A DNA stretch of 40,771 nucleotides from an uncultured Nitrososphaerales archaeon (GTDB lineage Archaea > Thermoproteota > Nitrososphaeria > Nitrososphaerales > Nitrososphaeraceae): NCBI GenBank assembly GCA_963709405.1, contig CAVPXM010000015.1, positions 1-40,771 on the forward strand. The letters are read 5' to 3'. Every line of letters starts with the position of its first letter. The first letter of the stretch is position 1. Both the position numbers and the translations under genes were made by a program. Of this stretch, positions 6,566 through 40,700 are shown piece after piece. The notes under the pieces are model-generated. The model was not told the DNA's origin. It saw only the letters and a program-made list of their open reading frames with translations, and searched no databases.

Positions 6566-6703
6566 CTAATGCCAGAACTACAGAGACATTCAAAATGCAT
6601 CAAAAAGATCATCATGTAAAGTTGCTCCCTTGTCTAAAGCACCTTCTCTGTTCTCAACCGCTGTCCTTAACACAGTGATTAACTTGTGATGTCTAGGAGC
6701 GAC
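6566..6703 (-). pseudogene. C-terminal relic of terminase large subunit-like protein (copy 1)
   Basis: Reads KLITVLRTAVENREGALDKGATLHDDLFDAF*MSL*FWH* with two nonsense codons; clearly homologous to 9243-9434. HDD-x2-DA resembles the terminase RNase H nuclease tail; the family call is from recall. Confidence 0.55.
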
Positions 6704-6739
6704 GAAAAATTCTATAAACAGAGGTACAGCCATAAAAAT

Positions 6740-7850
6740 ATGGAGAATAATCCAAATTCGAGTCAGAACAATATCGATCAAAAGAAACTTCAGAATTTTA
6801 TGCAAGTTATGTTGTCCGATCTAGGTAGTGCATACAGTGCAGTTCTCGTATATATCGGCGATAAACTTGGATTATATAAAGCTATGAAAGACGCAGGAAG
6901 ATCAATTACCTCGCAGGAACTAGCCGATATGACTGGGACTTCAGAACGTAACGTAAGAGAATGGTTAGCTAATCAAGCAGCAGGTGGTTACGTTATGTAC
7001 AATGCTGAAACCCAAATGTATTGGTTACCTAAGGAAAATGCAATGGCTCTGGCAGATGAGGATAGCCGTATATTCAATAGGCGCATTTCAAGGAACGATG
7101 TCGTACTTTAAGGATGCTTCAAAGATTATGGAGGCATTTAGAACAGGCAGAGGTCTTTCATGGGGCGAACACGATCCTGATCTCTTTATAGGAACGGAAA
7201 GGTTTTTCAAACCAGGCTATAAGGCAAATCTAGTAAGCTCATGGATACCATCGCTTGATAACGGTATAATAGAAGAAAAACTAAAGAACGAAAAAACAGT
7301 CGTTGCAGATATAGGATGCGGACATGGTGTTTCAACCATTATCATGGCAAAGGCGTACCCTAAATCCAAATTCATTGGATTTGATAATCATCCTGCTTCC
7401 ATAGAAAGGGCAAGAGAGTTAGCAAAGGAGGAGGGTCTGAGTGGAGATCAAATCAGCTTTGAGATTTCCTCTGCCACTGATTATCCCCTCTATTCTAATG
7501 CTAATAAGCAGTATGACCTTATTGCATTTTTCGATTGTCTCCATGATTTGGGGGATCCTGTAGGTGCGGCTTCTCATGCACTGAAATCACTAACGCAAGA
7601 TGGAACAGTAATGTTCGTAGAACCATTCGCCAAAGATAGAGTCGAAGACAACTTCAATCCTTTGGGCAGGTTGTTCTATGCTGCTTCAGCAATGGCGTGT
7701 GTTCCTGGTTCAATGGCATGCAATGGCCCCGCTCTGGGAGCACAAGCAGGAGAAACAAAAATACGCGAAGTTGTCATGGCCGGAGGCTTTAAGCAATTTA
7801 GGCGTGCCACACAAACGCCATTCAATATAGTATACGAAGCAAGACCCTGA
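6740..7850 (+). CDS. Class I SAM-dependent methyltransferase with N-terminal wHTH (Rv2258c-like); one frameshift near 7070
   Basis: GDKLGLYKAM...ERNVREWL N-domain in frame 6686; VADIGCGHG, FDCLHDLGDP and ALGAQAGE in frame 6984. Confidence 0.88.
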
Positions 7851-8875: not shown

Positions 8876-9101
8876 GTTATGAATGTTTTATATAAATGAA
8901 TGATGCTCACCTAAACTAACGTTCTACAACAAAACGCTACGCAAACAATAGATCTCTTTTGCGACTTTCATTTTCTGAAAAAAAATAGTGAGGAAGTAAC
9001 TTTATTGTTCATTCGAAACCCTGTCAGCATGTAAGAAACATTGTTTCAGAACTATAGAAAAATGTTATATAAACAATGTCAGCGTAGTATATATTTTACC
9101 T

Positions 9102-9242
9102 ATGAGATGGATTTGCGTTCATTGTAACAGCATAATGGATTGGACAAACTATACAGAGTTCATAAGGCAAAGCGACAACGACAAGAACAGCAATCAGGAG
9201 GCGAAAGTAGAATACCACGCTTGGCGTCTGCTGGCCGACTAG
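9102..9242 (+). CDS. Small CxxC protein (46 aa), not in the ORF track
   Basis: MRWICVHCNSIMDWTNYTEFIRQSDNDKNSNQEAKVEYHAWRLLAD*; TTATATAAA at 9065-9073 is about 30 nt upstream; its stop abuts the convergent stop at 9243. Confidence 0.45.
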   Translation: MRWICVHCNSIMDWTNYTEFIRQSDNDKNSNQEAKVEYHAWRLLAD

Positions 9243-9434
9243 TTAATGCCAGAATTGCGAGGACATCCCAAAAGCATCAAATAAGTCGTCGTGTGAAATA
9301 GTTTCTTTGTCCAATACTCCTTCACCATTTTCTACTGCCGTTCTTAGCGCGGTGATTAGTTTGCCGTCCTTTGTCTCGTCAATGGCCACCATTCCATTCT
9401 TATACTCAAGGAGTTCCTTGCAATATGCCAACAT
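9243..9434 (-). pseudogene. C-terminal relic of terminase large subunit-like protein (copy 2)
   Basis: MLAYCKELLEYKNGMVAI...KLITALRTAVENGEGVLDKETISHDDLFDAFGMSSQFWH*; homologous to 6566-6703; no ATPase part upstream. Confidence 0.55.
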
Positions 9435-9591
9435 CTTCTTATTCCCCTTGCCATGTCATTATCAGTGGTTCGCCCTATCAGAGCGCTTTATCCTAACTCT
9501 GGATACTTCGAGTGCAGCTTGGTCAATGATTTCTTCTGCTTCAACAGGACCTTGATGCCATTCCCTACCCTATTCTGAGATTGAATCTGGT

Positions 9592-9680
9592 AACAGTAAA
9601 AACAGTTGAAATCATTTGAAATCATATGGAACAGTTGGAAACGGACAGGAAACATACTGTAACATTTGGAAACAGTAAGT
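9592..9680. repeat. Degenerate ~10-bp tandem array (consensus about AWCAKTTGRA, 8-9 units)
   Basis: AACAGTTGAA ATCATTTGAA ATCATATGGA ACAGTTGGAA ACGGACAGGA AACATACTGT AACATTTGGA AACAGTAAGT; it ends at a TATA-like TTTAAG about 30 nt before ATG 9715. Confidence 0.6.
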
Positions 9681-9714
9681 TTAAGGCTTTAGCGTCCACT
9701 TTATTTACTTATAG

Positions 9715-10659
9715 ATGCATGAATTAAACAGGCAGGAAAAAGAAGATTACGTCATAGACCTGTATGATAATCAGAAGAAGACATTTCGAGAAGTACAGAA
9801 AATAGTAAGGAAATCTCCTCGCGATATAAAGTTAATTCTAGACAAAGCAAACCCAACCTCTTCCAAATCTACTATTGTATCATCCCAATCCTCACAGGCC
9901 TATCGAATGTTTGAAGAAGGAAGTACTCCAATCCAAGTCGCTATTGCCCTAGACCTAAGGGAGAAAGAAGTAAGCGAGTTATACAGAGAATGGTGGAATC
10001 TTAATGGACTGTATCAACTAAATCAGGTCTATGAAGAATTAGCCAATGACATTTGGTCAATCGCTGAATTAAATAGGAGAAGGAAGGCAGAAGGTCTTAG
10101 TATACAACGGGTAAGCATAATTCTTAAGAGTATCACAACACTTGAACGTCAAACCATGGATATGGAATGTGAAAAGACTAGACTGGAAGTAAACAATAAG
10201 TATGCAGCAACAACTTTTCAACAGTTTACTGATTCCATACAAAGAAACCGTAAGACAATGCAAGAAAATGAATATATCATTAACAAGCAGAAAATGGAGA
10301 TTAATAGATTAAGTACAGAAAAGGCAAGACTGGAGACCACAGTGGCTGATACTTGGATGAAGGTTATTGAGCCTAAGGCTACTAATAATGCCATGACGCC
10401 TATGGCTACTCCTATTACTACTACTACTTCTATCACTACTGCTGCTACTACTACCATTACAAATCAGCCTGAACTTGAACCCGAACTTGAACCTGAATCC
10501 GAACCTGATATACCAATATCATATCCTTCTGCTATAGTAGTAGGAGAAATGGGAGAGAAGGAGGATAGTCATAATAGCAACGTAATTTTCGATACTCGAA
10601 ACTTGTCACAGTTGGTCAGTCTAGCTTACAAGGATGTTTTAAGATTAAGATTCAAGTGA
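9715..10659 (+). CDS. HTH plus coiled-coil hypothetical protein with Thr-rich and Pro/Glu-rich linker
   Basis: N-terminal HTH-like TFREVQKIVRKSPRDI; second HTH-like AYRMFEEGSTPIQVAIALDL; heptad-rich middle; TTT and EPELEPE low-complexity tract. Confidence 0.7.
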   Translation: MHELNRQEKEDYVIDLYDNQKKTFREVQKIVRKSPRDIKLILDKANPTSSKSTIVSSQSSQAYRMFEEGSTPIQVAIALDLREKEVSELYREWWNLNGLYQLNQVYEELANDIWSIAELNRRRKAEGLSIQRVSIILKSITTLERQTMDMECEKTRLEVNNKYAATTFQQFTDSIQRNRKTMQENEYIINKQKMEINRLSTEKARLETTVADTWMKVIEPKATNNAMTPMATPITTTTSITTAATTTITNQPELEPELEPESEPDIPISYPSAIVVGEMGEKEDSHNSNVIFDTRNLSQLVSLAYKDVLRLRFK

Positions 10660-10868
10660 ATCCTGACTCTGACTCTGAACCTGACTTCGACTGAAGACGC
10701 TGCTGAACGGCTGAACCTAAAGAAAGATTTCCAGTCAGTCGGACCTTCTTTTCATTGCCTTCCTTCTTCGTCAAAGAATATTGGTGCATGACACTTCCAA
10801 CGCTCAGGCATATGCCTTAGTCTCCTTTCCTGGTGAAATGTATGCCAAAATAACAAAAAAAGGGAGTG

Positions 10869-11018
10869 ATGATAGTACTCCCGACGGAAGCAGAAACATA
10901 CCCCTCAGGCTTGACCCATTCGATTCAGGCCCAGGGAAACATGACAGGTGGATCTGCCCCCAGTTTCCCTCCCCACAGTGGAGACGACTGGAAATATTTT
11001 GACCGATCAATGCAGTAA
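10869..11018 (+). pseudogene. Fragment of an archaeal-type secreted protein ending at the island's left edge
   Basis: MIVLPTEAETYPSGLTHSIQAQGNMTGGSAPSFPPHSGDDWKYFDRSMQ*; AQGNMTGG resembles N-glycosylation-rich linkers of Nitrososphaeraceae secreted proteins (recall). Confidence 0.3.
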
Positions 11019-11027
11019 CGCGTACCG

Positions 11028-11196
11028 TTGTTGATCCACAACCATCCCGGAGGCGACCCGACCCCGTCACGCGTCGACATCCAGATGACGCAGGAGATCG
11101 TCGAGGTGGCAAAGCCGCTTGGCATAGCTGTTGGACGACCACAACATCGTCGGCAAGGCCGGGCACGTGAGCCTCAAAGGGCTGAAGTTGATCTGA
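11028..11196 (+). pseudogene. radC: RadC/JAB-domain 3' fragment
   Basis: [34 protein letters not shown]-(+1)[20 protein letters not shown], matching the HNHPSGDPTPS..D and DH motifs; no start codon. Confidence 0.85.
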
Positions 11197-11207
11197 CCTG
11201 AGCATTT

Positions 11208-11870
11208 TCAACTCGAGGGCAAGTGGTCCATCGCAGTCTTCTGAACCGTCGCCACGACCAGCACGTGAGAGAAAACGCACCAGTGGAGCGCGAGCGTGCG
11301 TCCGGCTCTGGTCGTCGCGAGCCGGCCGGCAAGGTCGACCTTGATGTCGTGAAAATCCAGAAACTCATGATTGAGCGGATAGGCCGCCTTGTAGACCGCC
11401 TCCTTAATGGCGAAGAGAAGCTTTGCCCCCAACGGGTTGTCAGCAATCGCACGCCGCTCCCGCGGTGTGACGGTCAGCTCGAGCATGTCCGGGGGCAACG
11501 GCGCGGCAGGTTCGATATCGATGCCGACCGCATCCAGGTCACGCCGCAGCCCGACAGCGGCGACAGCAATTCGATCATCGTGGGCCATCGAGCCTACGAC
11601 TCCGGCGGGCCAGATCGGGGCTCCAGATGTGCTCCTGAGGATCGGAAGGCCGGCAAAGCCCATCGAGTTCATCAGCTCGCGCGCCACACGCCGTGCGGCG
11701 CCGCTGGCGCGGCGCCTCTCGATCGCAGGGAAGGATAACGACGTCATCTCCTCGTAGAGCAGCGCGAGCTCATCGCCTTGCGAGATCACACGATGGCCGA
11801 TCAGCAGACCAGGCACGACGAGGGCGTCGATTGCGCGCTGAAGCGAGGGATCGACCGTACCGTCGGACAT
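11208..11870 (-). CDS. 4'-phosphopantetheinyl transferase (EntD/Sfp-like)
   Basis: GAPIWPAGVVGSMAH, VGIDIE and LFAIKEAVYKA motifs; ATG overlaps the GNAT stop (TAATG). Confidence 0.92.
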   Translation of the reverse strand: MSDGTVDPSLQRAIDALVVPGLLIGHRVISQGDELALLYEEMTSLSFPAIERRRASGAARRVARELMNSMGFAGLPILRSTSGAPIWPAGVVGSMAHDDRIAVAAVGLRRDLDAVGIDIEPAAPLPPDMLELTVTPRERRAIADNPLGAKLLFAIKEAVYKAAYPLNHEFLDFHDIKVDLAGRLATTRAGRTLALHWCVFSHVLVVATVQKTAMDHLPSS

Positions 11871-12317
11871 TACAGTTTCAGAACCGCGATCACTTCGCCA
11901 TCGCGGTCCCCCCCCACCTCCACGAAGCCGAAGCTGGCGTAGAACGGCTTCGCAACCGGATTTTCCGGCATGTAGCGGATCGATATCCTGTCCACCCAGG
12001 GATTTCTCGGATTTCCTCTAGAGCCTTGCTTAGCGCTGCGCGACCATAGCCTTTGCCTTGGTGCTTCCGATCGATCATGAAGCGATAGATCGAGGCTTCC
12101 TGCGCCTTGCCCTTCGTTTTCTGCACGTCGTACATCAGTAAGCCGACGACGCACTTCCCGGCATAGACGCCGCGCGCGCGTGGGAATCGAACTGCGCCTC
12201 GGCGATCGAATAGAGGTTGCTCGCCACCAGGTCTTCCTGGCCGGCACCGAACTCAAGCTCGACCACCGCTTCCCAATTGTTGCCGGTCACCTTCTTGAGC
12301 TTGACCTTGTCGCTCAT
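11870..12317 (-). CDS. GNAT N-acetyltransferase (spermine/spermidine acetyltransferase, BltD-like); two frameshifts
   Basis: Rebuilt from three frames: MSDKVKLKKVTGNNWEAVVEL..VASNLYSIAEAQF / IYRFMIDRKHQGKGYGRAAL / YMPENPVAKPFYASFGF; QGKGYG acetyl-CoA motif. Confidence 0.85.
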
Positions 12318-15300
12318 TGCGCTGCAATATACTCCTCGCCGCGCAAATCGACTCGGTCGCGGCTTGCAGGACGAACTCGTTTCGGACGGTGGCGTCTGCG
12401 GCGTCCTGGACGCAAACCTCAGCCCGAGCCACGTGGCGGCGCGCCAGCTTGGCCGGATTTCCGCACCACCCCGTATGAGAGTCCAGGATCTCGCCTTTCA
12501 TCAGGAAGGAATTGGCGTCGAGCACGACGTCGTCTCCGGTGCGGACGCCGTAGTGAACTAAGGCCCCCGGGCCGACCGAGCATCTGTTGCCGAGCCGGAT
12601 GTAGTCGGACTTGAACACGCCTTCCTCGAGCGAGTGTGCCTGCAACACACAGCCCTCGTTCAGATTGGCGTAGTCACCGACCTCGGTCAGTGAGCGTTCC
12701 GGGATGCCCATGCTGCAGTCGAACAGCTTGGCACCGACCTTCATGCCCATGGCGCGAAGCAGCATGCCGCGAAACGGGGTGCCGGCGAATACGGTCAAGA
12801 TCGGGAAAGCCGATAGCTTCCAGTACCTTTCGTGCAACCAGAAATACGGATCGTAGATCGAGGCGAGCTGCGGCTTGAGTCGCTTGAAGCCCAGGATCGC
12901 GCGCTCGAGCACGATGAAGAAGGCCATGTTGGCGGCGGTGACCGCCACGCTGGCTGCGAAGAACGCGAAGATGCCGAAACGATCGTAGCTTGCGAATGCG
13001 GCTTGGAAGAGCACTAGCGCGGCAAACACCATAATCCAGTGGCTGGCGAGGAAGATCAAGGCCGAGACGAAATTGTACGCGTTCTTCCGGCGCAGCCGGG
13101 CGAGACGCGTCTGCTCGTCGAACGACGCGTTCATGTCGCGATCGCGGTTGACCATGCGCGGAATTTCGAAGGCCGGCGAGCCGAGCAGCCCGACGTTCTC
13201 GCGCACCGGGCCGTCGATCGGGACCATGGTCATGGAGCCGAACAGAACGTTGGTTCCTGTGCGACCATTCGGCGGGTAGGAGATGGCGTTGCCCAGAAAG
13301 TTGTTGTCGCCGATCTTCGACTCGTCAAGCCGGAACGACGTCGCCGACATCTGCATGTTGATCATCGACAGCCCGTCCGAAACCATCGTGCCGCTGCCGA
13401 TATTGCAGAGAAACGGATTGTCGTGAGCAAGGTCGGAGCCCATGTTCGAGCCGGTCTGATAGACCGTGTTCAGGTTCCAGCCGACGTAGCGCATGTACGT
13501 CGTGATGGCTGACGAGTCGCCGAACAGCGATAAGAAGAAGTCCGAGTTGCTGACGCCCCGGATGATGCTCTGCAGCAGGTAGTGGAAGCCGAAATTCGTG
13601 TAGGTCACGCCGGGCCGCAGCGCCATCATGCAGAGACGCGGGATGACATACACGGCCGCCAGCCCGAGGCCGAGCGCGCCGAAGAACAACGCCGCCGAAA
13701 GGGCGAGCAGCAAGGGATCCGACATGGAGGAGATCCCTGGGCAATACAGAGAGGTTAGAGGAGACGGGCAATACAGATCCCAGACGTAGTAGAGGAGGAT
13801 CATCACCGCAGGCACGGCGATCAGGAGCAGTGTCGCGAGGATGAGCGACACATAGATGACGCCTCGGAGCGCAGCACCGTTCTTGCCCTCGATCGGGCAA
13901 TAGTCAGAGGACGTCTCGACCGCCGGCGAGCCATGGTAGTGCTTGCCATCCGGCACACGCTGGCCGCTCTGAAGCGACGAGGCATGACCGAGCTGCGTGT
14001 TGTCGCCCATCGCAGTGTCGATGTCGAGCACGCTCCCTTCGCCGACGAACGCGTTGCTGCCGATCGCCACCGGGCCGATATGGATGAAGTTCGACTGCGC
14101 GCGATAGCCGAGCAGGCTCGTGTTCTTGCGGACGATGGTGTTGTCACCGATCGTCACAAGGTCGGTACAGACCGGCGCGAACTGGCACCTCAGGATCACG
14201 TTGCGGCCGATCCTGGCGCCCATCAGACGCAGATAGGCGTTGTAGAGCGGTGTGCCGATGAAGGCAGCCGCAGGCGATGTGCGCATCAGGGTCTTGACGG
14301 CCCAGAAGCGGAAATATGCAAAGCTCCAGATCGGAATCGATTGCGCCTTGAAGCGGCCGATCAGCAGCCATTTCGCAGCGACGGGAACCACGGTCAGCGC
14401 AACAAACATTCCTGCGCCGAAGGCGACGCTGCGCGCGTAGAGCTCCACCATGCTGTCGGAGGCGGTCGTCCATTGAATGCCGGCTATGAAGATCCAGAGA
14501 CCGAACAGCAGATAGGCCGCGAAGAACCCAATCTGCAGGGCGCCGCACGTGACATACGAAAGGTTCGACGGAACGTGGAAGGGTTCCGGCTTCGTTGCGA
14601 CAGATCCGTCGGTCGACGAATCGAGATGATGCGCGAGCCTGGCGATCGTCGGATACATGTAGATATCGCGCATCGACACGTTCGACATGCCCGGATTTCT
14701 GCGGATCGCCGCACAGACGCGCGCCATCAACAGCGAGTTGGCACCGAGATCATCGAAGAAGTGGTGCTCGGTCGAGATATGCTCGGCACGAAGGACCTCG
14801 GCGAGCGCGGCATGCAGCATGCGCTCGCGGTCGGTTTTCGGCGGGACATACCCTTGCGCGGCGGAAAAACGCTGCAACTGCGGCTTCGGCAGCCTCTTGT
14901 AGTCGGCCTTGTTGCTCAGCGTCATCGGTATGGCGTCGACCTGCTCGAGGAAGGCCGGCACCATGTAGACGGGAAGCTTGCTGCGCAGCGCCTGCGAGAT
15001 CTCGCTATGCGGCAGCTCGACACCCTGCTTGAGAGCGTAATAGGCGACGATTTCGACGACGCCCTCCTCGGGCTCGAATGTCGTCACGGCGGCCTGCGCG
15101 ACCTGCGGTAGGTCGAGCAGCACCGCTTCGATTTCGTTGAGCTCGATGCGATAGCCGCGGATCTTGACCTGCGTGTCGATCCGGCCGCGGTAGTCGATCT
15201 CGCCGTTCTCGTCGATCCGACCAAGATCGCCGGTGCGATAGATTCGGCCGGAGGGATTGTTCTCGATATGCAGGAAATCGCGAATGAACTTCTTCATCGT

Positions 15301-16535
15301 CAGGTCATCGCGATTCATGTAACCGAGCGCCAGTCCGACGCCCGCGATACCGATCTCGCCGAGCTCGCCGGTCGGAACGGTCTTGTCCTCGTGAGGATCG
15401 AGGATGACGATCGAATAGGTCGGGAGCGGTACGCCGATCGTGACCGGCTTGTCCGGCCGCAGCTCGGTCATTGTCGCCGTGACGGTCGCCTCGGTGGGGC
15501 CGTAAGTGTTGAGAATGCGGCGGCCGGGGCGATACCATCGGGCCACGAGATTTTGCGGGCAAGCCTCGCCGCCGACCAGCAGGATCCGCAGGTCCGGCAC
15601 GTCCTGCTCGATGGTGGCGAGCAGCGTCGGACAACAAGCCATCACGGTCACACGGCGTTCGCGCAGAAAGTCGCCGAGCTCGTCGCCCATCAGGGTCGTG
15701 CCGGCCGGGCCCGGCACGAGCGTCGCGCCGGCCATCAGCGGCACCCAGATCTCCTCGACGGAGAAATCGAACGCGATCGTCATGCCCTGATAGACGCGAT
15801 CGCCGGGCGCATAGCCATAAAGCTCGGCGGCGACGCGCACGAAATTGCAAATGCTTGCGTGTCCGATACCGACGCCCTTCGGATTACCGGTGGTGCCCGA
15901 TGTGTAGATGATGTAGCAGAGCGGCTCGATCGGCGGCGCAACGCCGGTCAACGGATCGGCCGCCTGTGCATCGATCGCCGGCCTCTCCGAATCAAGAAAT
16001 ATCTTGTCGACCTGGAGGCCGGAGAGGCGCTTCGCGAAACTCGACATTGACACGATGACGGAAACGTCGGCGTCCCCGAGGATGAAGCGGACGCGTTCAA
16101 TCGGAAAGGCGGCGTCGAGCGGCACATAGGCCGCATTGACTTTCATCACCGCAAGCATCGCCACGTATGTTTCTGGCGATCTGTCGAACATCATTGCGAC
16201 GCGGTCGCCGGACTTGATTCCGCGTGCGAGCAGATGACGCGCGAGCTGATTGGCACGGCGGTTGAGATCGCGATAGCTCAGAACGATGCCGCTTCCGATG
16301 ACGGCATCATTCGTCGCGAAGCGGATGCAGGCTTCCTCGAGAAGATGATTGAGCCGCTCGCCAGGAGCCCAGCAGACTGCATTGCTCGCATGCTCTCGCG
16401 TACGACACTCTGAGGGCGGCCGAGGCGGCTGACCCCGTTCAGATCAGGCTGCCGTTGTGCGAGCGGGCGCAACTCGACGACCGACTCTCCTCCGACGTGG
16501 TCGGCATTCGATCGGCGTGGAACAGATCTCGGCAT
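12314..16535 (-). CDS. Pls/PosA-family single-module NRPS-like poly(amino acid) synthetase (A-T plus three membrane/hexapeptide repeat units)
   Basis: A-domain cores LSYRDLN, YIIYTSGTTGNPKGV, AFDFS, NTYGPTE, YRTGDL, QVKIRGYRIEL; T domain FFDDLGANSL; three LRxMGxxIG-type repeats with TM helices. The frame extends upstream of 16194 to about 16440; probable start 16535 (one shift); probable true end EEYIAAQ* at 12314 (one shift). Confidence 0.9.
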
Positions 16536-16543
16536 GGCATGAT

Positions 16544-16550
16544 CCCCTCT
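16544..16550 (-). promoter_or_regulatory. Shine-Dalgarno sequence of the synthetase
   Basis: AGAGGGG on the minus strand, 8 nt before ATG 16535. Confidence 0.6.
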
Positions 16551-16771
16551 GGTATACTTATATCCCTTCCTTAACTTACATTAGTTGAGATTCCAAAACT
16601 TTACTGGCAAAATCATAAAAGACCTTGCATTTTTGTTCTGTGCAATAACCGAGTTGCCAGACACCATGGTTAGTCATTTCCATGGAAAGCAAGTGCGTCG
16701 TGGCGTGGTGGTTCCTATTCATTCATCTATTAGAAGATTCTAAATTATTTAAATAGACTGATAGATCTTTC

Positions 16772-16849
16772 GAAAGAATATACGTGTAATAGATTTGGAA
16801 AGAATATACGTGTAATAGATTTAGAAGGAATATACGTATAATAGATTTG
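16772..16849. repeat. 3 x 26-bp tandem direct repeat
   Basis: GAAAGAATATACGTGTAATAGATTTG / GAAAGAATATACGTGTAATAGATTTA / GAAGGAATATACGTATAATAGATTTG, with no spacers. Confidence 0.95.
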
Positions 16850-17974
16850 AGTATTATGTTATTCATAATAATATCGTTGAATTTTTAAGACGCTATGCTG
16901 ATTTTGCATCATCATTAAAACAAGCTAGGTTTCGACAAAATTGTAAATTCAATATCATGATTATTTCTTCAACCCAACATGCAATTTGGATGGACTTAAC
17001 TCTAGTCGATCGGATTAGTGAAATTTAGTTGTCCATTGCACCTAATTTATTGCCGGAAGCTGTGATATGTTAACTCTAAGGGAATGCCATAACTGAAGTC
17101 TATTCTCAGTGCGCGTGCAGCGATATAAAGATGTCATCTTAAAAATATGTTGGTAATTAATGTATTCTTATTCTCGTGCTTTATAACATGGTAACGAATC
17201 AAAACGATTTCCAGGATTTTGTTGAGAATCCGTGTATGTATTTACTTATTATTTATGTATCTATCTATCAGTATATCTGAAAGAGGATTCAAAATCTTCA
17301 GGCAAGAAAAAGTAATAGGAAAATGAAAGTATTTATTAAAGTGCAAAAGAGATAGACTCTGGCATTTAGGTCACAACATTTGGTTGTGGATTGCGATCAA
17401 ACCCAGCGAGAGAGAACTGTTAAAATGGATATATCTTTAAAAGAATTCTTGTTGCATATCGTTTAGTCTTATCTTAATCAGAACTTATGAAAAATATTCT
17501 GTATTTTCAGATGATCTTTAATTCCAATATGCTCATAAGTCTTAATCCTAGACATCATTTTCTTCATCCCCATTATAAAAAAAGTGTGATCGAGATAGGG
17601 AAATATGTAGTACGTCAAGGACTGAACGGCAGTTTTTATTAACTGCTTTCCACTTAAAAAAGTAAGCCATTTCACAGTGAAACCTAGATGAATCACTTTA
17701 TCAATTATTACAAATACGAGGGTAATGTGTGCAGTCATCAGGATCAGTCGCTCAGACAAAAAGTTTATGAAGTAGTGCTAAAATCGAACATATCGCATAT
17801 AGAATAACGATACCAACTTTCAGCATAGGAAGCTATATTTATTTGGAACAAAGTGTAGTTCAGAGGATCACCTCTAATTCGATAATTTCGTTTTGAATAA
17901 GATATTGTATTTATCATGGAAATTAGAAAGTTGATTGAAAGCACATCGTATAACTTCACTTTTTCATATCATAG

Positions 17975-18033
17975 TCACATACTTATCAGCCTTCTTCGCA
18001 GAAGACTCTTGAATCTGGATCCGGATACAGAAA
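17975..18033 (-). repeat. Diverged duplicate of the nucleoside hydrolase 3' end
   Basis: 18002-18033 matches 18111-18142 at 29/32 nt; it encodes SGSRFKSLLRRRLISM* versus SESRFKSLLVNRLRSR*, with the stop at the same codon position (offset 109 bp). Confidence 0.8.
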
Positions 18034-18083
18034 TCGAAGGTTAATACAAAGTATAATATGACTTTGATACTATATGAATAAAT

Positions 18084-19091
18084 TCACCTGCTTCTTAATC
18101 TGTTTACCAAAAGACTCTTGAATCTGGATTCGGACACAAAAACTGCCACTAGAACATGTCCAGAAATAGTGTCTTCATTAAAAATGCACTGTCCACGAGC
18201 ACTTCCTTCCAAAGTTATAACATCTACCATTCCTTTAGTAAACCTAAAAAGTGATGGCTTTTCGAGCATAAATACAGCAAGAACATCGTGTAAGTGTACA
18301 GCGGTATTTTGTTCAAGCTTGTAATTCAGTAATGACACGAGGAAATTTGACGCTTCTAGGCGAGATTTATTAGGACAACTATCACTACAAATACTATTGA
18401 CTAAATCCTTGCTTATCGAACATTCGCAACTTAGACCGACATCGAGTCCAACTATTCTTATCATTGGATGCATCTTTGTACTTAATACTATCCTAGCTGC
18501 ATCTGGGTCACAATAAAAATTAAATTCTGTAGATCCTGTTACGTTTCCAAATGTATTTCTATTATTTGAGCCAAATGAACCCCCCATTATAGAAATCTCT
18601 TTAATCCTACTTTGAATAGCTTGCCTTTTCATTACCATTGTTGCTATGTTCGTGAGAGGACCAGTAGCTATGATTGAAACATTTTCTTCTGGGTATCTTC
18701 GTAAAATGAATTCAACAAAATCTGAAAAGGAATGTGTTCCCTTAAGTTCATCGGGCGTAGTTCTAACCCATAGATCATTCATCCTTTTAATGTCTATATG
18801 GAGGTTACCTAATCCGCGTTTTCCATGGCTTACATCTCTTCTTCTCTTGACATTAGAAGAGAGAAAGCGATTCTTCAAGGACCTGTCTGCACCTTGGAAC
18901 ACAGGAATATCCAGTCTATCTTCGATTTCAAGTACCTTCAAGACATTCAGTGCGCCTATACTAGGCTTCACATTGCCGTTTACCGTGCTAATCCCAACAA
19001 CACTGATATTTCTTGATCTTAAAGCCACTAAAATGGCAACGATGTCATCTATACCAGAATCTACGTCCAAAATGACTTTACTCTTTGCCAA
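18084..19091 (-). CDS. Inosine-uridine preferring nucleoside hydrolase family
   Basis: DVDSGIDD, VNGN, ATGPLTN, MGG, EFNFYCDPDAA and HD motifs. Confidence 0.92.
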   Translation of the reverse strand: MAKSKVILDVDSGIDDIVAILVALRSRNISVVGISTVNGNVKPSIGALNVLKVLEIEDRLDIPVFQGADRSLKNRFLSSNVKRRRDVSHGKRGLGNLHIDIKRMNDLWVRTTPDELKGTHSFSDFVEFILRRYPEENVSIIATGPLTNIATMVMKRQAIQSRIKEISIMGGSFGSNNRNTFGNVTGSTEFNFYCDPDAARIVLSTKMHPMIRIVGLDVGLSCECSISKDLVNSICSDSCPNKSRLEASNFLVSLLNYKLEQNTAVHLHDVLAVFMLEKPSLFRFTKGMVDVITLEGSARGQCIFNEDTISGHVLVAVFVSESRFKSLLVNRLRSR

Positions 19092-39381: not shown

Positions 39382-40014
39382 CTATTTCTTGTCTTTTGGA
39401 TAAACAAATTTTTCTTTAGTTGACGAATTCTGGTCACTTGGTCCGTGATAGTCCTCCGGGTATGCCTCATTTATCAGTTGACTAACAGCTTCCCCTGTTG
39501 GCAATGGAGCATTTCTGTCAACTTCATATTTGAAAATTTCTGGATAATCTATATCCAATATGACATTTCTGCCGACTGCGATTATATGTGATTTAGGAAT
39601 ATCATATCTATAACCTCGATCTCCAAAGACAACTATCTTATCAGAAGTTTCTTTCATAATATATCCAACGTGATCTTCATTATTCGCTCGTACTCCCTTG
39701 TTAAACAGAGATTTCGGGTATTCTCTTTCATAAGTTCCAAGATCAATCCTCCCAGATGGTGAAGTCCATGGGTCTTCACGGCTAGATGGGAGTGGGTCTT
39801 CACGATTAACTTTGTACTTGTCTACAATATCCTTGAAACTAAGACCAATTAGAACGTTAGCACCAGTTTGCTGAATTTCAGAGATTGGTATATCATACCT
39901 TTCGTTCTTCCCTCCAAATACAATAATCTTATCAGGGGTCTCTCTTACAACATGTCCTATATCAGGTGAATCAAGAGCTTTTACCCCCTTGTTGAAGTAC
40001 TTCCCCGAAGTCAT
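39382..40014 (-). CDS. Hypothetical protein with two internal PRC-barrel-like repeats
   Basis: FNKGV....G....ET.DKI.VFG....RYDIP.S.I...G.NV......Y.V.R..PLP occurs twice. Confidence 0.8.
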   Translation of the reverse strand: MTSGKYFNKGVKALDSPDIGHVVRETPDKIIVFGGKNERYDIPISEIQQTGANVLIGLSFKDIVDKYKVNREDPLPSSREDPWTSPSGRIDLGTYEREYPKSLFNKGVRANNEDHVGYIMKETSDKIVVFGDRGYRYDIPKSHIIAVGRNVILDIDYPEIFKYEVDRNAPLPTGEAVSQLINEAYPEDYHGPSDQNSSTKEKFVYPKDKK

Positions 40015-40360
40015 CCTTTTTCATAAATATGATATCGAACCAATTATTTAATGATTTATTTATCTGGCTTTTTCAGTTTGAGGAATTGATTTTAGCATGA
40101 ATTTTAGTTTACTGACACTAATTAAAATCAACGTTTGCACGAAATGGCGAGCTCTGTATATTATTAATTCGTCTAAAACGTATAGATATTCATGTGTTAT
40201 AGATTTCGGTTAGATTTTATGCCGCTGTCGGCAAGATTACTCTCGACCTTGTAATTCCCATTATTTATTTATCGTTAATACCTGACTTAATCCCTTGGTT
40301 TAGTTCTAAACAAATCGATATATATGATATACTATATTATAAATGTGAAAAGGAGAGATA

Positions 40361-40700
40361 ATGAATAATACTCTTAAACCAATTATAAAAAGACAGTTAC
40401 TGTTTATTGGAGGAAGTTTAGCAGTTTGCTTTGTAGTCAGTTATGTTTTTGGTTATTTCGTAGGAATTATTTTAAATATGGTAATATTTGTAGGAATCTT
40501 GTTCTACATTAGAAAAAAACAGACTTAGTGCGTTAAAATCTTTGGGCTTTAGCAATGAGAAAGCAGGCGGAGAAGGTTTCAACTGGTTCAATACGGATCC
40601 AGTGAAAGTAAGGTATGTCTGCCTAGGCTGTGGAGCAGAAATTAGTGGTATTAGTAGTTGCAACAAATGTGGCTCGAAAATGAAAAGACCTATTTTTTAG
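40361..40700 (+). CDS. Two-TM membrane protein with C-terminal zinc ribbon; one frameshift near 40520
   Basis: MNNTLKPIIKRQLLFIGGSLAVCFVVSYVFGYFVGIILNMVIFVGILFYIRKK / ...YVCLGCGAEISGISSCNKCGSKMKRPIF*; AGGAG and TATA-like sequence upstream. Confidence 0.7.

Follow-up and report, generated by a model that had tools for sequence, protein, structure and literature searches.

The window analysed here, a stretch of 40,771 nucleotides (nt) that makes up the entire contig C15 of a genome assembly from an uncultured archaeon of the Nitrososphaeraceae (G000, 4.83 Mb in 100 contigs, with a G + C content (GC) of about 0.36), contains a GC-rich block in which lies the operon of a non-ribosomal peptide synthetase (NRPS) of the Pls/PosA family. 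This block is a real genomic island and not an assembly chimera, and very probably it is a Hyphomicrobiales-like operon that, with the genes of a 4′-phosphopantetheinyl transferase (PPTase) and a GNAT acetyltransferase and with a piece of radC, entered the archaea once and then spread among their genera. The window copy is probably one member of a family of Pls/PosA islands carried by a minority of soil Nitrososphaeraceae, a member in decay, and not a one-off.

A GC-rich block within low-GC archaeal DNA

Every 500-nt interval from 11001 to 16500 has a GC of 0.60–0.65, against 0.29–0.44 in the rest of the 40.8-kb contig; between 11019 and 16549 the mean is about 0.61, as against 0.35 in the flanks. 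Both edges are sharp at the level of the single base, the left one falling at 11018/11019 and the right one at 16549/16550, directly upstream of GAGGGG. The first-pass annotation had described a GC-rich block with sharp edges and without integrase, transposase, or inverted or direct repeats, and the GC profile, the base-level edges, and the domain and repeat searches bear this out: no integrase or transposase domain was found in the scanned open reading frames (ORFs) of the block and its flanks, nor any terminal inverted repeat, flanking direct repeat, tRNA, or Rfam match at the block edges. As neither integration machinery nor target-site marks were found, the island is not a classical integrative element. 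The decayed mobile element beside which the block had been placed was not recovered, in that no mobile-element gene was found next to it; the flanking ORFs that were scanned encode histidine kinases, a MEDS protein, a split helix-turn-helix (HTH)-methyltransferase, an NHL-repeat protein, a nucleoside hydrolase, and the like. The features of the island and its edges are:

10927..11196, plus strand: radC remnant (3′ portion of a gene for a JAB-domain RadC) that contains a stop codon and two or more frameshifts and spans the GC step at 11018
11019..16549, no strand: high-GC block of alphaproteobacterial origin (composition profile, base-level edges, and colinearity with archaeal and bacterial loci)
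11208..11870, minus strand: Sfp/EntD-type PPTase, intact, 220 amino acids (aa) (Pfam 4PPT_N 4.6e-17, ACPS 9.7e-14)
11870..12317, minus strand: GNAT acetyltransferase gene, a pseudogene in this strain, split over three frames (tblastn, Pfam)
12253..16535, minus strand: Pls/PosA-family single-module NRPS with adenylation domain, carrier domain, and a membrane domain of six transmembrane (TM) helices and three hexapeptide-type segments
16544..16549, minus strand: Shine-Dalgarno-like GAGGGG, located 8 nt ahead of the ATG at 16535, where the bacterial-derived sequence ends on the right
16550..16676, no strand: low-GC upstream segment common to close strains, with a TATA-like string at 16551–16566; putative archaeal promoter
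16676..16728, no strand: putative breakpoint between the island with its left flank and a nucleoside-hydrolase locus (differing continuations; synteny starting at 16728)

The gene content reported at first, that is, the NRPS, the PPTase, the stop/start overlaps, the Shine-Dalgarno sequence, and the radC tail, was found again, one point to be corrected being that the block is not intact, with frameshifts near 16393, 12172, 11994, and 11132. The longest open frame of the NRPS, 12253–16194 (1313 aa), matches the NRPS terminal-domain model TIGR02353 over its whole length (model positions 1–695 of 695) with 678.5 bits for a cut-off of 423.1, and TIGR01733 with 379 bits; its Pfam matches are limited to AMP-binding, AMP-binding_C, PP-binding, and two hexapeptide families, and include neither a condensation nor a thioesterase domain. 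The hydropathy peaks, from which alone the TM helices were predicted (19-residue window, threshold of at least 1.6), lie at residues 548–573 and 585–612, 782–800 and 828–846, and 1045–1063 and 1078–1101 of this 1313-aa ORF, so that the six hydrophobic helices form three pairs with some 170–200 residues between pairs.

When one genome per species was scanned, 31 loci were returned (numbered with the prefix L), ten of them on contigs of archaeal-labelled metagenome-assembled genomes (MAGs) from other assemblies (Nitrososphaeraceae, Nitrososphaera, Nitrosocosmicus, “Nitrosopumilales,” and Thermoproteota). The archaeal-labelled contigs that carry the block are up to 613 kb long, and their names follow the styles of several assemblers. 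The six loci with two flanks and a Nitrososphaeraceae or Nitrosocosmicus label consist of 4–5 kb at 49–58% GC within DNA of 27–42% GC, and in L003 and L004 the host DNA itself has 44–50% GC. L013, L022, and L021 are colinear with 11213–16560 of the window at 88, 86, and 80% DNA identity, respectively, and the bacterial loci are colinear with the block at 74–80%.

An artefact, by which a bacterial read or contig would have been joined into an archaeal contig as a long-read chimera or through misassembly, had been judged at least as likely as a transfer, and several observations are in keeping with it: the block carries frameshifts; the assembly contains 12 stretches of at least 600 nt with a GC of at least 0.57 (57,320 nt in total), several of them at contig ends, such as 25 kb at the end of C55; and the junction evidence comes from other assemblies and not from spanning reads of the source sample, the highest share of the sampled words found in any public run being 0.57. 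We nevertheless give this explanation hardly any credence, as both GC steps are bridged in independent assemblies. Part of the stretch is present in 22 of the 24 public runs listed, and at least half of the sampled words in 14, which come from seven studies. Contigs were compared from four runs (X1, X2, X6, and X7), each from a different study, X2 being 99.5% identical to the window, with the same indels, and not counted as independent, since it may share the source campaign. The left step at 11018 is bridged by short-read contigs in three of the four runs (X2 at 10617–11233, X6 at 10204–11801, and X7 at 10723–11600) and is crossed by L012, which matches 10927–11087 at 84%, and the right step at 16549 is bridged in one of the four, by contig 24 of X6, which runs on to 16663, and by L024, which matches 15347–16676 at 93.7%. 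To this are added the orthologous block on the ten archaeal-labelled contigs and the grouping of the window copy in an archaeal clade and not among bacteria, as described below. For the scanning of genomes there is a caution in this, because a sharp and seemingly “unameliorated” GC block in a long-read MAG, with the look of a chimera, proved to be real through other assemblies.

At the left edge, 11019–11135 matches the RadC model NF000642 at positions 158–192 of 212 (E 3e-10), and the tail ends in ..SLKGLKLI before the stop at 11196. An archaeal-looking ORF at 10869–11018 had been thought to be cut here by the insertion; this is not the case, as the 10927–11087 segment that L012 shares is a single conserved one in an independent locus and continues as a decayed radC across the GC step. 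L012 itself, an independent MAG, presents at 14513–14858 two halves of a radC remnant that face each other, one being inverted relative to the radC tail, with the inversion breakpoint at about 11080–11087 of the window, at a GTCGAC palindrome. At the right edge, the bacterial locus L016 has a GGAGGGG box just upstream of its ATG, and in L021, L022, and L024 AT-rich TATA-like strings are also found just upstream of the ATG; as firm promoter evidence these strings were rejected, because AT-rich DNA yields them by chance.

Bacterial origin and probable spread among archaeal genera

For the phylogeny, the intact ORF of the bacterial locus L023 supplied the codons onto which 27 NRPS copies were projected, with an in-frame stop in only one of the 27 (L015). 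An unrooted IQ-TREE (LG+G4+F) splits all bacterial from all archaeal copies with a support of 100. In a FastTree rooted with the C-terminal domain of the Streptomyces locus L025, which is a single sequence on a long branch (L024 being left out as too short, and L028–L031 not aligned as too distant), the 11 archaeal copies make up one clade (support 1.0; stem of 0.158 substitutions per site), nested in the alphaproteobacterial copies through nodes with support of 0.96–0.99. The sister of this clade is the copy of a Hyphomicrobiales MAG (L016), followed by those of Pseudolabrys, Xanthobacteraceae, and other alphaproteobacterial MAGs. One of the loci within the archaeal clade, L015, is a 4027-nt contig labelled Alphaproteobacteria bacterium with a flank of 30% GC, and is probably an archaeal contig that was binned with a bacterium.

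The nesting in the tree, and the position of the block inside low-GC DNA of archaeal contigs, thus uphold the initial view of bacterial-derived DNA in a Nitrososphaeraceae genome, and the order of the nearest copies upholds that of a Hyphomicrobiales-like donor, whose lineage, to judge from the sequences, would be unsampled in the genomes searched. The closest bacterial copy among these, L016, has 81% DNA identity to the window NRPS and a synonymous divergence (dS) of 0.59, and no copy above 81% was found among the bacterial genomes searched; the archaeal copy L024, by comparison, is 96.5% identical, with a dS of 0.067. Related genes, with 67–70% DNA identity, are found on large plasmids of Shinella, Aureimonas, and Phyllobacterium. 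What finds no support is the idea of a very recent inter-domain transfer, given this distance to the best bacterial copy, the stem of the archaeal clade, and its occurrence in ten of 238 genomes.

The GC at third codon positions (GC3) of the NRPS is 0.86–0.92 in ten of the 11 bacterial copies measured (0.72 in L009), 0.817 in the window, and from 0.75 down to 0.55 in the other archaeal copies, with a value of 0.319 for the aEF-2 gene of the host; two further copies, L040 and the intact L037, have a GC of 0.58–0.65 and 0.41–0.51, respectively. The window copy is thus the least ameliorated of the archaeal copies, and since it lies within the archaeal clade while being barely ameliorated, convergent AT-driven amino-acid change cannot explain the grouping. 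The adenylation core motifs A4 and A5, the conserved catalytic lysine, and the carrier serine are all kept in the NRPS copies, the carrier serine motif being LGANS in 24 of the 25 copies that cover the site and LSANS in L005. Together with this conservation, the ratios of nonsynonymous to synonymous divergence, 0.12–0.39 among archaeal copies and 0.08–0.23 among bacterial ones, indicate that purifying selection has acted on the gene in the archaea.

TIGR02353 is matched above the cut-off in ten of 238 Nitrososphaeraceae genomes, G000 included, and in four of 18 genera: three of the seven genomes of the window's own genus, four of 34 in g10, two of 72 in g12, and one of 14 in g18. In addition, G100 has a fragment of the NRPS and G044 a decayed remnant interrupted by stop codons, and there is no carrier among the single-contig genomes of the family that were listed. 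Nine of the 238 are unpublished and count as non-carriers only (G130, G216, G131, G234, G162, G089, G161, G088, and G091).

Between the window and copies in other genera the dS of the NRPS is 0.22–0.70, and within the genus 0.31–0.47; among archaeal copies as a whole it is 0.2–0.8, far below the saturated core genes. For aEF-2, G000 compared with three other genera gives a dS of at least 2.8 or one that is not computable, and 0.87 within the genus, and for rpoB the dS is not computable in any of ten pairs, with DNA identity of 70–82%. The PPTase gene of L040, from genus g18, is 94% identical in DNA to that of the window. The cut points are also shared: six archaeal copies (the window, L013, L021, L022, L024, and L015) switch to AT-rich DNA at the Shine-Dalgarno site, in four others the first 45 codons or so are replaced by AT-rich DNA with a new start, and in the window, L012, L003, and L004 the PPTase is followed by a radC tail, radC being absent beside the operon in every sampled bacterial locus. 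From the shared cut points and the low dS of the NRPS we infer one transfer from bacterium to archaeon and subsequent spread between genera. The operon would have been acquired by the Nitrososphaeraceae in a single event, with the cut exactly at the ribosome-binding site of the bacterium, and part of the adjacent radC gene would have come along with it; it would then have passed between no fewer than four genera of ammonia oxidisers of the soil, when these had already diverged, and in each lineage its GC would decay towards the value of the host.

The principal alternative is that a single unsampled bacterial lineage contributed the operon several times, independently, to different archaeal genera, the window being the latest recipient, with no passage from archaeon to archaeon. 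The window copy would fit such a history, as it is nearly unameliorated in GC3, resembles bacteria in GC1 and GC2, and has the shortest root-to-tip distance (0.09 against 0.15–0.23), and so would the variable flanks, the long stem, which suggests an unsampled donor lineage, and the relatives on large plasmids. It is made improbable, in our judgement, by the cut points that the genera have in common, both the Shine-Dalgarno site as the 5′ end and the radC tail that follows the PPTase, when radC adjoins the operon in no sampled bacterial locus, and by full support for an archaeal clade that contains the unameliorated window copy, which excludes AT-driven convergence. A single ancient acquisition in the ancestor of the family, followed by vertical descent and many losses, would account for gene-tree subclades that follow the genera (L013, L021, and L022 in g10; L003 and L004 in g12; L001, L002, L012, and L014 in g1) and for the remnant in G044; yet it is very hard to reconcile with an NRPS dS between genera so far below that of aEF-2 and rpoB, with GC3 values that in most copies are still far above the host value, and with a gene present in so few genomes and in none of the listed single-contig ones, and we consider it highly improbable.

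Some points nonetheless weigh against one entry followed by spread. The monophyly of the archaeal copies could itself hide several transfers from one unsampled bacterial lineage; the contrast in dS was drawn from two core genes, with the NG86 method applied across genes of very different GC3; and the MAG of L040, G226, has 830 contigs and 6% contamination, so that its contig could be misbinned. Moreover, neither the domain scan of the ORFs nor the repeat search makes any transfer machinery visible at the block, and the flanks differ between most archaeal loci, with flanking synteny common only to L001, L002, and L014, and to L001 and L012. Histidine kinases near several loci were considered as a shared flank and discarded, being 35–40% identical and probably paralogues. 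Finally, the comparison of the flanks with relatives, proposed at the outset as a check, did not yield an empty site in the same-genus genomes G021, G024, and G025, which have the right-flank genes without the left flank next to these.

State of the window copy and predicted product

The NRPS of the window has a 2-nt GA insertion near 16393, some 48 codons after the ATG at 16535, which is unique among the 27 aligned sequences and sets these N-terminal codons in a different frame from the rest of the gene; the first 100 or so residues of the adenylation domain are in another frame, and the next start codon downstream is the ATG at 16194. If this frameshift is real, the enzyme would miss the start of its adenylation domain. 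The contigs of X1, X6, and X7 do not have the two bases, and X2, which shares the other indels of the window, does not cover 16393. Long-read MAG loci from one project carry scattered single-base indels even in bacteria (27 in L026), so that the frameshift could be an error of the assembly consensus, which would tell against the loss of the enzyme in this strain.

The GNAT gene is recovered as three tblastn pieces against the intact bacterial GNAT of L023, each in a different frame, with Pfam Acetyltransf_1 on the middle one. Its frameshifts lie near 12172 and 11994, where the contigs of X1, X6, and X7 have four more nt (at 12170/12173) and one more C, respectively, and near the radC frameshift at 11132 these contigs are one base shorter; read from their contigs, the X1, X6, and X7 strains have open frames at the NRPS, GNAT, and radC frameshift points alike. 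At the GNAT and radC sites the X2 contig agrees with the window, an argument for the reality of the frameshifts there. Thus, with the NRPS frameshift as assembled and the two in GNAT, the operon is probably inactive or decaying in this strain. The start of the PPTase overlaps the GNAT stop at base 11870 and an ATGA overlap is found at 12314–12317, in a frame other than the one currently open. Among archaeal copies GNAT is whole in L013 only, and partial or reduced to remnants elsewhere, and it seems to be dispensable in archaea.

The PPTase follows the NRPS in ten archaeal genomes, with 63–91% aa identity. A PF01648 match is absent from all four closed Nitrososphaeraceae genomes, from which it would follow that the island's own PPTase is needed, and that the operon is, as was first claimed, self-contained. 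Besides the island PPTase, G000 has a low-GC (0.37) AcpS-type PPTase-like ORF of 120 aa on contig C47 (1329–1688).

According to passages of PMC10522769, enzymes of the Pls/PosA family make isopeptide-linked cationic homopolymers, with positions 1 (Asp) and 3 (Glu) of the adenylation code conserved in the family and position 2 setting the length of the substrate: Ala for Lys, Met for Orn, and Phe in the synthetase of the diaminopropionate polymer (PDAP). In the loci described here, the pocket motif FDFS(V/I)EE, that is, Asp, Phe, and then Glu three residues on, occurs in 25 of the 26 sequences in which the site is covered (in L022 the Glu is replaced by Asp), the code positions having been mapped by the spacing of Asp217, Met218, and Glu221 given in those passages and not by structural alignment. 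By analogy, this Asp-Phe-Glu motif makes a short diamino acid the best guess for the substrate; substrate and product are both inferred from motifs alone, a point to be counted against the functional reading. The PPTase would arm the carrier domain, the adenylation domain would activate a diamino acid, and the membrane-embedded C-terminal domain would join the monomers one by one into a secreted polycation.

The architecture resembles that of the ε-poly-L-lysine synthetase Pls of Streptomyces albulus, which, in the description given by parts of PMC10522769, likewise has one adenylation and one carrier domain, no classical condensation or thioesterase domain, and a C-terminal domain of some 730 residues in which six TM helices, arranged as three pairs, surround three soluble segments of some 180 residues. 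It differs from it in that the C-terminal domain has about 41% identity to that of L025, the sole Streptomyces locus returned, in having Phe at pocket position 2 where lysine-activating enzymes have Ala according to the same source, and in its archaeal host. The δ-poly-L-ornithine synthetase PosA of Acinetobacter baumannii, in the parts of PMC10522769 that concern it, belongs to the same TIGR02353 family and has the diamine-binding Asp and Glu at positions 1 and 3, which are also present here; PosA has Met at position 2 and a single-gene operon, whereas here there is Phe, and GNAT and PPTase genes follow. Passages of that paper also mention “a few” archaeal homologues whose substrate is not known, some grouped with Rhizobia and Methylobacterium, a grouping (“from Archaea, Rhizobia, Methylobacterium”) that matches the Hyphomicrobiales affinity found here; the archaeal/Rhizobia code they give, D L E D I G T V T/V/I K, has Leu at position 2, where all the present copies have Phe. 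Closest in organization are the operons of the Hyphomicrobiales, Pseudolabrys, and Xanthobacteraceae MAGs (L007, L008, L019, and L023), with the same order of NRPS, GNAT, and PPTase and colinear with 11258–16429 at 74–75% DNA identity, which differ in lying on high-GC bacterial chromosomes, with bacterial upstream regions and no radC beside them. Beyond the passing mention of archaeal homologues in PMC10522769, in passages where the archaea are unnamed and neither GC islands nor transfer is mentioned, no description of an NRPS island in Nitrososphaeraceae was found in the literature searches; the part of PMC6627896 that was considered has no bearing on the island.

It is conceivable, and we propose it tentatively, as something that falls short of probable, that a polycation-synthetase island moves between genera of soil ammonia-oxidising archaea without a recognisable mobile element, and that hosts with intact copies can thereby release a poly(diamino acid) that acts as an antimicrobial or an adhesive. 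Little secondary metabolism is generally ascribed to ammonia-oxidising archaea. If the proposal were true, this would be the first non-ribosomal peptide product of the Nitrososphaeria, and a conserved NRPS operon, with its own PPTase and under purifying selection, in roughly 4% of Nitrososphaeraceae species would equip part of them with a chemical weapon or surface polymer, which could affect the competition with nitrifying bacteria and fungi in soil; the copies, with GC3 from 0.82 down to the level of the host, would in turn be a natural time course of amelioration in archaea. The locus also displays the stepwise adaptation of a bacterial operon to an archaeal host, by the fusion of an AT-rich archaeal upstream region at the ribosome-binding site, the replacement of the N-terminus in some copies, the loss of GNAT, and the graded loss of GC.

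The join to the right of the island and other stretches of the assembly

From about 16663–16676 onwards, L024, the X6 contig, and the window have three different continuations, and in three genomes of the same genus (G021, G024, and G025) the synteny with the window starts at 16728. There, a short repeat (16728–16795) and the nucleoside hydrolase adjoin homologues of window 39382–40698, and the left flank of the island is not nearby. The interval 16676–16728 is either a natural rearrangement hot spot or a misjoin of two archaeal loci. In the second case the island would be just as real, and C15 would have been misjoined at this interval, and in the cell the nucleoside-hydrolase locus would lie elsewhere than beside the island; besides the separate continuations of L024 and X6 and the position at which synteny begins, this is favoured by the coverage, as 16925–18500 is covered by none of the four runs and 9000–11018 by all four, with the reservation that missing run cover is not evidence of absence. 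On the other side, three close strains with three continuations make a natural rearrangement as likely as an error, and the assembly contains no repeat of the stretch elsewhere that could have misled the assembler. A misjoin is thus unlikely on balance, while deserving considerably more weight than a chimera at the edges of the island.

Upstream of the nucleoside-hydrolase locus, 16768–16849 consists of three tandem copies of a 26-nt unit (TTTCGAAAGAATATACGTGTAATAGA-like), an array that may be a regulatory repeat; the 16728–16795 segment, which overlaps it, is conserved at 81–82% in the corresponding position of three congeneric genomes. In three same-genus genomes the nucleoside hydrolase and the homologue of 39382–40062 are neighbours, and in the window they are some 20 kb apart (19200–39380); the hydrolases have 53–65% protein identity, against 89–90% for the neighbour gene, and may be paralogues. 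In the low-GC flank on the other side of the island, 6686–7850 encodes Rv2258c-like winged-HTH and S-adenosylmethionine (SAM)-methyltransferase domains in two overlapping frames and looks like a single gene split by a frameshift, from a family with many paralogues in the genus.

Elsewhere in G000 there are 11 further stretches of at least 600 nt with a GC of at least 0.57, several at contig ends, which may be acquired islands or misjoins; among them are C55:430241–455640, C55:1–5560, C22:341–4760, C63:1–1340, C63:81541–84500, C86:7941–10020, and C46:1–1000. The largest, the 25 kb at the end of C55, encodes GAF-domain proteins (in two overlapping frames), a luciferase-like monooxygenase, a sulfatase, and a solute-binding protein. 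Contig C80 (7079–10100) carries a low-GC gene for an AMP-binding enzyme, 25% identical to the adenylation domain of the NRPS, which adjoins a GC-rich stretch of about 1.5 kb with a GC of up to 0.62.

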